Sequence record: PZ452594.1
From: a phage
DNA: 64,000 nt
Reading direction: 5' to 3' (one strand)
The notes under the pieces are model-generated. The model saw nothing but the letters and a program-made list of their open reading frames with translations. It was not told where the DNA came from and searched no databases. The position numbers were made by a program, and so were the translations under genes. This document shows positions 3,743 to 46,405 of the stretch, one piece after another. Each line of letters begins with the position of its first letter. Position 1 is the first letter of the stretch.

Positions 3743-4840
<1,098 letters not shown>

Positions 4841-16076: not shown

Positions 16077-16119
16077 ATTATTTTCCTCTTTAATCATCAG
16101 CAGTATTGCCGATAGTTGT

Positions 16120-16149
16120 ATAGTACCATAGAAGGACAAGGATGTAAAC
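16120..16149 (-). promoter_or_regulatory. T4-type early promoter (GTTTAC-18-TACTAT)
   Basis: GTTTAC 16144-16149, -10 16120-16125 (minus); shares the conserved box ATAGTTGTATAGTACCA with other copies. Confidence 0.6.
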
Positions 16150-16173
16150 CGTTTTGTGAAAAAATTTTTTGAA

Positions 16174-33297: not shown

Positions 33298-33338
33298 TTT
33301 CTAATCTCCGTAATTCTGTATCAGTAGTTGATAGTTGT

Positions 33339-33368
33339 ATAGTACCACAGTATGCTTTGGTTGTAAAC
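33339..33368 (-). promoter_or_regulatory. T4-type early promoter (GTTTAC-18-TACTAT) upstream of motA
   Basis: GTTTAC 33363-33368, -10 33339-33344, AT-rich UP region; conserved box GTAGTTGATAGTTGTATAGTACCAC. Confidence 0.65.
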
Positions 33369-33391
33369 CGTTTTGTGAAAAAAATTTAAAA

Positions 33392-36505: not shown

Positions 36506-36754
36506 AACTTTTTTAAAAATATTCGTAATAAATGTGAATACCAATCACTACTGCCGAAACCTGTGCAACCCACCACGCACAAGCAATAAGTACAGAATTC
36601 AAAATTTTCATAATAACCTCATCACAAAAGTAAATGTTAAACAAATTACTGGAATACTAATTAACCAAACAAAACACCACCATAATGAACTCATAGTTCA
36701 ATCTCAGCGATTTTCATTTTATTCTCCAAATCTGTATCAGTAGTTGATAGTTGT

Positions 36755-36784
36755 ATAGTACCACGGTCCTTGTGGTATGTAAAC
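36755..36784 (-). promoter_or_regulatory. T4-type early promoter (GTTTAC-18-TACTAT)
   Basis: GTTTAC 36779-36784, -10 36755-36760; conserved box as at 33339 and 62983. Confidence 0.6.
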
Positions 36785-43745: not shown

Positions 43746-44165
43746 TTATTCCTTAAAGTGTGCTTTCAACATCTGATACAAGGACCATGCCTGTTCATTA
43801 TTTTCAATAGTAACTTTCATGACTGGGAATTCTGTGAAATCTTCTATTTGTTCTTGCTCTTTCTCTTCCTGCTCTTCAGCTGCCTGGTATGGATTTTCAA
43901 CTTCATCAAAGAACCCAGCTTCGTTAGTAGAAAGCCAGATAAAGTTTTCGTCAAGGATATCACCATGTGTTGCATATCCAACTGTGCCAGTAGATGTCAC
44001 AATTTTAGTAGGACGACCAAGATGGTCAACATCTAAAATTTTAAAAGGATGCATACCTAAACGGCGTGCATAGATTCCGTTATCAGTATGGTCTTTAATA
44101 AAATTTTCTTGAGCTTGTTTATTTTTAAATTGATACCATTTATTAACTTCAAATTTAATAGCCAT
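43746..44165 (-). CDS. hypothetical protein (possibly goF-like by position and length)
   Basis: 139-aa ORF with acidic central region. Confidence 0.4.
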
Positions 44166-44413
44166 TAATAAATTTCCTTCCAGTAAGTTGTGCCATCTTC
44201 AGTAATTTCACGAAATACACCGTAAATTGGTTGTTTATCACCAACCTTTTCATACACATAAACCGAAGTCAAGTGAGTAAACTTGATGGTGTGTTCCTTT
44301 TGAACTACTACCAAATCTGGATCGAATAATACATCTTCAAATTCGTCATTAGTGCAATTCTGAACAATTTTACGTTTCATTACAATTTCCTCATTAATTG
44401 AACAGTGGAGCAA
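44165..44413 (-). CDS. hypothetical protein
   Basis: 82-aa ORF. Confidence 0.45.
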
Positions 44414-44675
44414 TGCGTTTCAGAAGAGTAGTAGCACCTTTGGCGAATTTTACATCATGAAAAACAGTTTCTTCTTCTGTAACAACTCGAACTTTAATAT
44501 TTTCACAATCCCAATTTTTACGAGCAATCTTCAAAAGCTGCAGTAAATCTTTACATTCAGCAATATCGATAACACATCCACGAGAATCTTCCATTATCGC
44601 ACGATAACCGTAAGCCATACCATAATCGTTGAAAGATTGCTCGATGATAATTAAGTTTTCCATTTTATTCTCCAA
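44394..44675 (-). CDS. hypothetical protein
   Basis: 93-aa ORF. Confidence 0.45.
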   Translation of the reverse strand: MENKMENLIIIEQSFNDYGMAYGYRAIMEDSRGCVIDIAECKDLLQLLKIARKNWDCENIKVRVVTEEETVFHDVKFAKGATTLLKRIAPLFN

Positions 44676-44760
44676 GTTGTTTTCTGTATCAGTAGTTGAT
44701 ATTGATATAGTACCATAATCAACTACTGATGTATATAGTTTTATGAAAAAATTTTAAACT

Positions 44761-45252
44761 TTATGCATAGCGAGCTTTGCTATAGTGTTTAATCCAACTT
44801 TCAGGAATGACTTTGTATGTTCCTAAAAATACCGCGTTGTATAACTTAACGCCATCTTCTACCCATTGATCAGTAATGTATGCACACATGGCGCGAGTAC
44901 GGTTAACAACCCCTTCCTCACCTTCAGTAAATTCAAACTCATAAGGAGCAACGAACTTAATAGCTTGACCGAGTTTCCACTTAAAGTCTACGCCTACATG
45001 CGAAGTATCAATCGTTTCAATTCCTTTAGCGGGAACAGCTTTCAAAAACGCAGGCTCAAGAAATTTCCATCGAACATAACCAAACTGAGGTTTAGACATT
45101 CCATCTTTAGGAATGATACGCACTTTTACTTCAGAATCTTCATCTTTAACACCATGTTTAAGCTGAATGCTTACGACTTCAACCAATTTTCCTGCTGCCT
45201 TAGAACGGGATTTATCAGATACACGAGCAATTTCACCGATATTAATATTCAT
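44761..45252 (-). CDS. motB: MotB-like protein
   Basis: 163-aa ORF; position and length as T4 MotB; C-terminal ITDQWVEDGVKLYNAV. Confidence 0.5.
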   Translation of the reverse strand: MNINIGEIARVSDKSRSKAAGKLVEVVSIQLKHGVKDEDSEVKVRIIPKDGMSKPQFGYVRWKFLEPAFLKAVPAKGIETIDTSHVGVDFKWKLGQAIKFVAPYEFEFTEGEEGVVNRTRAMCAYITDQWVEDGVKLYNAVFLGTYKVIPESWIKHYSKARYA

Positions 45253-45296
45253 AATTATCTCTCACTTGTTAAAAAGATTTTATACTCCGCAGGACC

Positions 45297-45326
45297 ATTA
45301 TACTCTGGTCCCAAGAGTTTGTAAAC
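45297..45326 (-). promoter_or_regulatory. T4-type early promoter (GTTTAC-18-TATAAT)
   Basis: GTTTAC 45321-45326, TATAAT 45297-45302; inverted repeat GGACCA...TGGTCC around the -10. Confidence 0.6.
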
Positions 45327-45826
45327 TAGCTTACACGAACATTAATCACTGCGCTGCGAGGAACTACGGAGTACTCTCCAGCATGAACTACATTAAGAAG
45401 TTCAACGCCATCTTCAATCCACTGGTCAGTTACCCAACCGCCAATCGGATTCGCGAATGGACGACGAATATAAACTGCCTTACACAACAAATCAGTCGGG
45501 TCTTCAATTTTTTCAACTGGTGTTACATACATAGAAACTAAATCCATATCAATATGGGATTTTTCTTGTTCTTCTTTTTCAATTTCTGTCAATAAATTGA
45601 AATCTTCTTCATAGATGATGAATGATGATACCCTTCCATAATAGTTTCTAATTTCCATGTACACTGTACCAATGAGAATTCCGCTATTAACACTAATAAC
45701 AGTAAAAGGATATCCGCCAGTTGTACCAAGAAGTTCCCAAAACTTGCTATCAGTCGTATTCGACATTGTCTGGAAATCAATTTCAGATGGTTTTTTCATT
45801 TGATACGTAGTATTAATTTTAATCAT
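45326..45826 (-). CDS. MotB paralogue (C-terminal domain)
   Basis: 166 aa; C-terminus VTDQWIEDGVELLNVVHAGEYSVVPRS aligns with the upstream MotB-like ORF. Confidence 0.5.
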   Translation of the reverse strand: MIKINTTYQMKKPSEIDFQTMSNTTDSKFWELLGTTGGYPFTVISVNSGILIGTVYMEIRNYYGRVSSFIIYEEDFNLLTEIEKEEQEKSHIDMDLVSMYVTPVEKIEDPTDLLCKAVYIRRPFANPIGGWVTDQWIEDGVELLNVVHAGEYSVVPRSAVINVRVS

Positions 45827-45835
45827 AATTTTCCT

Positions 45836-46348
45836 TTAATCTAAGGTAATAAAGCCTTTTAATTCGGCATGCGATTTGCGAAACATTACTTGATGCCCAC
45901 CAATGATAACTTGATCATCTGGCACTTCATAAATCGCAATGTACATTCCACGATCTTTTAAGTCTTCACGCTCTTCTCGAGTAAACCATCTCATTATATC
46001 ATATTCACTAGCGAAAGCAAAATGATATAATGCAATAAACCACAATGGAATATAATTTTCAATTCGTGAATAATCTTTATTCCATTTAGTTTTAATAGCA
46101 TCATTAGCATTTTCAACTAATAACTTATCATCGTGTGGAATAGGAATACTTTCATGACTTTCATAATCATTGCTATGATGATGAAATGATGATGAATTAA
46201 TACCGCAAAATTTTAGCCAAGTTCGAGTTTTCATAGAATCAAATCCACGATAAGGAGTTGATTGAACACATAACTCTTGCCTAATTTTCATTATACCACT
46301 ATCATCATTTAATGCGCTAAACGATGATTCAACACGATAAATTTTCAT
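45836..46348 (-). CDS. hypothetical protein
   Basis: 170 aa from internal ATG with SD GAGGATAATAAA; the track start lies inside the promoter. Confidence 0.45.
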   Translation of the reverse strand: MKIYRVESSFSALNDDSGIMKIRQELCVQSTPYRGFDSMKTRTWLKFCGINSSSFHHHSNDYESHESIPIPHDDKLLVENANDAIKTKWNKDYSRIENYIPLWFIALYHFAFASEYDIMRWFTREEREDLKDRGMYIAIYEVPDDQVIIGGHQVMFRKSHAELKGFITLD

Positions 46349-46375
46349 TTTATTATCCTCAGTAGCTATGGTGTT

Positions 46376-46405
46376 ATAATACCACAACTAACCGAGGAAG
46401 TAAAC
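46376..46405 (-). promoter_or_regulatory. T4-type early promoter (GTTTAC-18-TATTAT)
   Basis: GTTTAC 46400-46405, -10 46376-46381. Confidence 0.5.

Follow-up and report, generated by a model that had tools for sequence, protein, structure and literature searches.

The motB locus

The window analyzed here (the whole 64-kb stretch of phage DNA in sequence record PZ452594.1) belongs to a T4-like coliphage (Tequatrovirus) of the AR1/RB18/wV7 group and shares 99% DNA identity with phage AR1. Over the 2 kb that surround the locus (44400-46400), identity is 99.0-99.2% to Escherichia phages vB_EcoM_Maryam and AR1 and ∼98.8% to RB18 and wV7. Two adjacent open reading frames of 163 and 166 amino acids, which the original prediction described as tandem MotB-like paralogues, are located here on the minus strand, and both peptides quoted for them are found in their translations. 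The annotation of AR1 names the first motB (44761..45252) and the second motB.1 (45326..45826). They form part of an early-gene cluster that in AR1 runs dda – dexA – motB.2 – motB.1 – motB – (ar1_010) – cef – goF – 39.2 – 39, with every gene on the minus strand. The features considered below are the following.

43746..44165, minus strand: goF, 139 amino acids (phrog_622 at 5.4e-42; AR1 annotation), three genes downstream
44394-44675, minus strand: ar1_010-like open reading frame, 93 amino acids (phrog_3720, function unknown), between motB and cef
44761..45252, minus strand: motB, 163 amino acids (Pfam PF17613, phrog_1671, AR1 annotation)
44785..44976, minus strand: common C-terminal module of MotB, residues 93-156, with a hairpin insertion of 14 residues (hhalign)
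45297..45325, minus strand: promoter-like site of the early type, TTTACA-17-TATAAT, 11/12 matches (consensus scan only)
45326..45826, minus strand: motB.1, 166 amino acids (phrog_2333, AR1 annotation)
45341..45490, minus strand: common C-terminal module in MotB.1, residues 113-162 (hhalign, family alignment)
45506..45574, minus strand: linker insert of MotB.1, residues 85-107, EEQEKSHIDMDLVSMYVTPVEKI, absent from the 143/144-residue forms, including that of T4

The promoter-like site lies within the 73-bp gap that separates the stop of motB.1 from the start of motB, and its sequence is conserved in T4; across the region, the consensus scan returned no more such sites in total than it did in shuffles. 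The presence of this site before motB suggests that the gene is served by a separate promoter; motB.2 and motB.1 are separated by a few bases only. The −10 hexamer of the site is bracketed by a 6-bp inverted repeat (GGACCA/TGGTCC), also conserved in T4. Between 44300 and 46500, no intrinsic-terminator-like site was found, and Rfam returned nothing credible. Three open reading frames on the opposite strand (44866-45324, 45167-45541, and 45657-45803) have no PHROG match and were treated as non-coding.

Downstream of motB, the intergenic stretch 44657-44758 is a repeated cassette with a conserved promoter-like core (GGTACTATA) and a leader (CAACTACTGATACAG). Similar copies are located at 33314-33390, 36711-36763, and 16111-16168. 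The cassette downstream of motB folds as a hairpin with a perfect 13-bp stem (−20.7 kcal/mol, z = −5.4) and resembles the PeSL promoter/stem-loop elements of T4-type phages, which have been proposed as drivers of gene and module shuffling in these phages. The repeated cassette flanks the ar1_010-like open reading frame, which would fit an insertion mediated by the cassette; T4 lacks this frame and possesses a gap of roughly 170 bp in its place between motB and cef.

Assignment of MotB and MotB.1

The product of 44761-45252 matches PF17613 over its full length (profile positions 1-162, 321.5 bits, 1.1e-96) and phrog_1671 at 2e-76. It features the motifs VS-x-x-SRSKAAGK and FKWxLG ... ITDQWVEDGVKLYN, which are invariant columns in the MotB family alignment (A2, 22 sequences), and is thus MotB proper (Category 1 of Son et al. 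2021). It is a full-length orthologue of T4 MotB, with an equivalent position between motB.1 and cef/goF and an equivalent two-domain layout, and is ∼86% identical to the commonest MotB cluster of the T-even phages (P0126).

The product of 45326-45826 lacks the N-terminal VS-x-x-SRSKAAGK motif and is therefore not MotB proper. Its match to phrog_2333 extends over residues 1-165 (1.8e-83), the stretch DPTDLLC ... GWVTDQWIEDGVELLNVVH is invariant in the MotB.1 family alignment (A3, 21 sequences), and the gene is located directly upstream of motB, in agreement with AR1 and T4 synteny; these features identify it as MotB.1 (Category 2 of Son et al. 2021). A second match, to phrog_1671, covers residues 79-162 (1.6e-15). 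MotB.1 of the window is the orthologue of T4 MotB.1: it is 82-86% identical to the T4-type forms, occupies the same position, and likewise combines an apparently GoF-like N terminus with a MotB-type C terminus.

In contrast to the T4-type forms of 143/144 residues, MotB.1 of the window possesses a 22-residue insert in the linker between its domains, which appears in the DNA alignment with T4 as a 66-nt in-frame indel. The insert carries the motif [ILV]D[MFT]D[LVI]xxxYxxP (IDMDLVSMYVTP). The same motif recurs in KOW-type members of the family, where it lies between the domains, and in 180-residue MotB.1 forms, where it is N-terminal. Residues 96-110 of the linker are predicted to be disordered (pLDDT < 50 in the AF2 model), and the motif may serve as a short linear interaction motif.

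A common C-terminal domain

BLASTP of MotB against MotB.1 yields one significant segment, which pairs residues 124-152 with 130-158 (16/29 identical, 21/29 positive, E 9e-10). The Smith-Waterman score of the two proteins is 98, compared with 29.5 ± 4.9 for shuffled sequences (n = 5000; z = 14), and none of the 5000 shuffles reached it. The C-terminal domain of MotB.1, and this domain only, also matches the MotB family of Pfam: PF17613 aligns to residues 121-160 through profile positions 114-153 of 162 with 33.4 bits, the gathering cut-off being 25 bits. When the profiles of the two family alignments are compared by hhalign, MotB 93-156 aligns with MotB.1 113-162 (probability 98.2%, E 3.1e-14). 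The common module thus comprises ∼50 aligned residues, more than the 29 first noticed, and MotB has 14 extra residues in the first β-hairpin. In the N-terminal halves, hhalign aligns nothing.

The C-terminal domains of MotB and MotB.1 are homologous, and the two genes are paralogous in this domain. That the blocks resemble each other by chance, or have converged on a short motif, could be argued from a raw pairwise alignment with just 16 identical residues, but this is refuted by the BLASTP and permutation statistics, by a Pfam match above the curated cut-off, by the profile–profile alignment over 50 columns, by intermediate family members that bridge the MotB and MotB.1 types, and by the agreement of the predicted strand patterns of the two proteins, so that we consider it extremely improbable. 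The original prediction of a common C-terminal block and unrelated N-terminal halves, which had left the significance of the similarity to be checked by pairwise alignment, is borne out on all of these points. The observation is correct and has been known since 2021, when Son et al. (PMC7827196) described the common C-terminal domain of MotB and MotB.1, their differing N-terminal domains, and a likely duplication.

Searching all six frames of the window with an HMM of the module finds two copies only, those of MotB and MotB.1. The duplication is old, as indicated by the coding DNA of the 29-codon core, which is 55% identical, with 11 of the 29 third positions identical. Invariant across the whole family are Asp-134, Trp-136, Gly-140, Asn-145, and Val-147 (MotB.1 numbering). 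They belong to a core of the form (T/S)D(Q/R/A)W-x-E-(D/E/N)-G ... N-x-V, which is acidic and aromatic in character.

Predicted structures of MotB and MotB.1

AF2 models computed on the family alignments reach a mean pLDDT of 80.6 for MotB and 78.6 for MotB.1. Both consist of two small β-barrels with a low-confidence linker between them. MotB is predicted to comprise a basic KOW/SH3-like N-terminal barrel (residues ∼1-70), a disordered linker (70-85), and the C-terminal barrel (∼93-157). The predicted layout of MotB.1 is a GoF-like (LSm-like) N-terminal barrel (residues ∼1-83), an acidic linker (84-112), and a MotB-type C-terminal barrel (113-162).

The two C-terminal barrels are modeled with identical strand order, and in each a 3-10 turn connects strand 4 to strand 5. 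In MotB, the strands comprise residues 97-110, 115-132, 135-142, and 145-150, followed by the turn of three residues and a last strand at 154-157. In MotB.1, they comprise residues 117-120, 128-138, 141-148, and 151-156, followed by the turn and a last strand at 160-162. The models suggest that the common domain is an SH3/Tudor-like barrel and not the OB-fold of the cold-shock DNA-binding type that Son et al. (2021, PMC7827196) predicted with HHpred for the C terminus of MotB. The combination expected of an OB-fold, an order of strands 1-3, a helix, and strands 4-5 together with structural neighbours that are OB-folds, was not found for it. The resemblance to the SH3-like small β-barrels of Tudor, PWWP, chromo, and KOW domains is one of fold only, with 9-20% identity, no Pfam match, and no PDB match with the domain profile.

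The N-terminal domain of MotB.1 is modeled with strands at residues 7-10, 41-48, 54-60, 66-72, and 79-82 and a helix at 23-36 (pLDDT 80-88). This arrangement corresponds to the bent sheet of five antiparallel strands (LSm-like/SH3-like) of the GoF/Frd.2/MotB.1 family. Among the BFVD structural matches of the MotB.1 model, homologues of MotB.1 and MotB stand close to the head of the list; GoF appears by name only at rank 49, with a weak E-value of 0.012, above the usual cut-off. Sequence searches of PDB chains with both proteins and with the C-terminal domain profile gave no meaningful match and revealed no solved relative.

A frameshift in the reference sequence of T4 motB.1

Whether T4 motB.1 carries the same C-terminal domain was raised with the original prediction, and the answer depends on the T4 record. 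In the reference sequence, MotB.1 (P0023/P39415; NC_000866.4, 2792-3151) has 119 residues and ends with ...TDQWIGRWR, inside the conserved TDQWIEDG motif. DNA alignment reveals an extra G in the reference (TGGATTGGAAGATGG versus TGGATTGAAGATGG), beyond which the remainder of the domain is intact, shifted to the next frame. T4 motB.1 does carry the domain: it encodes 143 residues in resequenced T4, and the reference record is cut short by this 1-nt frameshift.

A 72-nt probe matches without a gap in the GenBank phage collection only in AF158101.6 and NC_000866.4, which are one sequence, and with one gap in 13 other records of T4, T4T, RB55, and RB59. In the two annotations inspected, those of T4T and of one resequenced T4, motB.1 is given as 432 nt and 143 residues. 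A pattern scan of IMG/VR returned no match to the frameshift allele and three to the in-frame allele, counts too few to be informative. The extra G has the appearance of either an error in the reference sequence or a mutation confined to one stock. Kim et al. (2025, PMC12152347) report MotB.1 as a protein of 13.8 kDa and do not mention the frameshift. Work on MotB.1 should use the form of 143 residues (or the 166-residue form of the window), not the 119-residue UniProt entry P39415.

Charge distribution and possible function

MotB is an abundant early protein that binds DNA tightly and non-specifically, both modified and unmodified, and that co-purifies with H-NS/StpA only when DNA is present. 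It alters the H-NS footprint and remodels H-NS–DNA complexes, its over-expression de-represses part of the H-NS regulon, and it improves fitness and burst size; either of its domains could bind DNA, according to the published work (PMC7827196), and neither domain is assigned this role in the literature. MotB.1, by published accounts, is non-essential and has no known activity.

The N-terminal domain of MotB is basic, with a pI of 9.6 and a net charge of +4 (family mean +3.9). The common C-terminal domain is charge-neutral, with a pI of 6.8 in MotB and in MotB.1 alike. MotB.1 as a whole is acidic, at a net charge of about −10, to which the N-terminal domain contributes −4 and the linker −6.

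Because the N terminus of MotB is basic and the common domain is neutral with an acidic and aromatic invariant core, the N-terminal barrel appears to be the likelier source of the DNA affinity of MotB. We tentatively propose from these sequence properties that the N-terminal barrel might supply most of the non-specific affinity and that the common barrel might serve in docking or self-association, a reading in which our confidence is modest. The common barrel would then bring a DNA-binding barrel (in MotB) or possibly an RNA-binding barrel (in MotB.1) to the same partner or assembly.

Neutral barrels can bind nucleic acid, as PWWP, Tudor, and KOW barrels do. [quoted passage not shown] The neutral charge of the domain and the SH3/Tudor-like fold of its models call into question both the published OB-fold label and the DNA-binding label that the original prediction had attached to the duplicated domain.

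A more specific form of the docking proposal appears rather unlikely and is offered as speculation. A Tudor/SH3-like docking or self-association barrel, in place of a DNA-binding one, would join the basic KOW-like barrel of MotB and the LSm-like barrel of MotB.1 to one partner or assembly. The negative findings published on T4 MotB.1 may, moreover, stem from a 119-residue construct that, owing to a spurious frameshift in the reference sequence, lacks most of the module. If the common domain is indeed a docking module, MotB and MotB.1 would act on the same target.

Origin of the two-gene arrangement

The N-terminal half of MotB.1 appears to have a relative within the same gene cluster. The HMM of phrog_622, the family of GoF, matches MotB.1 of the window over residues 1-103 (2.2e-4) and two of its relatives at 4.4e-6 and 2.6e-5, and it has no match in MotB of the window. 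The N-terminal domains of the MotB.1 family, in turn, are not matched by models of the MotB N terminus. The signal is weak at the sequence level (E 2e-4), and hhalign of the MotB.1 family alignment (A3) against a GoF alignment yields an E-value of 0.23; this GoF alignment is shallow, all 120 GoF homologues listed being at least 80% identical. The control alignment of MotB with the same shallow profile was negative. Because of the E-value of 0.23, the support for a GoF link of the MotB.1 N terminus is that of the PHROG HMM and of published work: its GoF-like nature was published in 2025 by Kim et al. (PMC12152347), who grouped it with GoF and Frd.2 by structural clustering into an LSm-like family. 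The C-terminal domains of the members of this family differ, and the MotB-type barrel is found in MotB.1 only.

MotB.1 therefore looks like a chimera of a GoF-family N-terminal domain and a MotB-type C-terminal domain, whereas MotB keeps its predicted KOW-like barrel. The original prediction had envisaged duplication followed by divergence of the N-terminal halves. Paralogy of the C-terminal domains upholds the first part of that scenario. The second part fits poorly with an N terminus that matches phrog_622 in MotB.1 but not in MotB, and with the lack of any alignment between the two N-terminal halves, which probably did not diverge from each other.

A HMMER search of 1.84 billion representatives returned 30 matches, 28 of which are credible relatives. 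Two large repeat proteins, P0238 (842 residues) and P0245 (605 residues), proved on inspection to be spurious low-complexity matches. No relatives outside T4-like phages were found in this search, and most of the remote family members possess a KOW-type N terminus. One relative, P0055, is encoded at 4001-4438 of a contig from a Klebsiella-type T4-like phage (L008; ENA contig k141_211960, 174,781 bp), where it is the sole gene of the motB family between dexA and cef. P0055 combines a MotB-type KOW-like N terminus (VYVS-LSRS-x-AGK) with a MotB.1-type C terminus. The MotB profile aligns to it from end to end (E 3.5e-18). The C-terminal module of P0055 shares 74% identity with the module in MotB.1 of the window and 33% with the one in MotB of the window. 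This architecture looks like the pre-duplication form.

Since relatives such as P0055 join a KOW-like N terminus to a MotB.1-type C terminus, we infer that the N-terminal module of MotB.1 was replaced by domain shuffling. The ancestor would have been a single gene encoding a KOW-like barrel, the linker motif, and the C-terminal barrel, a form that would still exist in Klebsiella-type T4-like phages. This gene would have been duplicated in the T-even lineage. In one copy, motB, the N-terminal barrel would have been retained, and the C-terminal barrel would have diverged and acquired the hairpin insertion; the other, motB.1, would have kept a conservative C-terminal barrel and exchanged its N-terminal barrel for a module of GoF type that came from within the cluster. 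The order of events may have been duplication and then the N-terminal swap, or a copied C-terminal module may have been fused to a GoF-like gene.

Alternatively, a whole motB-like gene could have been duplicated in tandem, with the N-terminal half of one copy diverging in place beyond recognition. The genes are adjacent and similar in size, and both N-terminal halves are predicted by AF2 to be five-stranded small barrels of similar length. A duplication, which the 2021 paper also suggested (PMC7827196), did occur, as indicated by a different T4-like lineage in which a single-copy gene with KOW-like and C-terminal domains occupies this position. Against divergence in place stand the specificity of phrog_622 for the N termini of the MotB.1 family, which MotB N-terminal models in turn fail to match, the absence of an N-terminal alignment between the family profiles, and the published structural clustering, in which the N terminus of MotB.1 groups with GoF and Frd.2 (PMC12152347). 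On balance, we judge this alternative improbable.

Replacement of the N-terminal module is thus the reading that we prefer. The account as a whole, namely an AR1-type motB/motB.1 pair with homologous C-terminal barrels, a chimeric MotB.1, an ancestral single-copy form, and a docking-module function as tentatively proposed above, appears very likely to us. Each T-even paralogue appears to keep one ancestral-like half, pointing to module swapping in a hyperplastic early-gene cluster.

Further architectures occur among the sequences of the family. P0053 (251 residues) contains two tandem GoF-like N-terminal domains followed by the C-terminal domain, and in the pair P0040/P0032 (247-248 residues), P0040 carries an extra, unrelated N-terminal domain. 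In P0242, an open reading frame of 43 residues that seems to have arisen by deletion, the start of MotB.2 is joined to the final 29 residues of the C-terminal domain of MotB.1.
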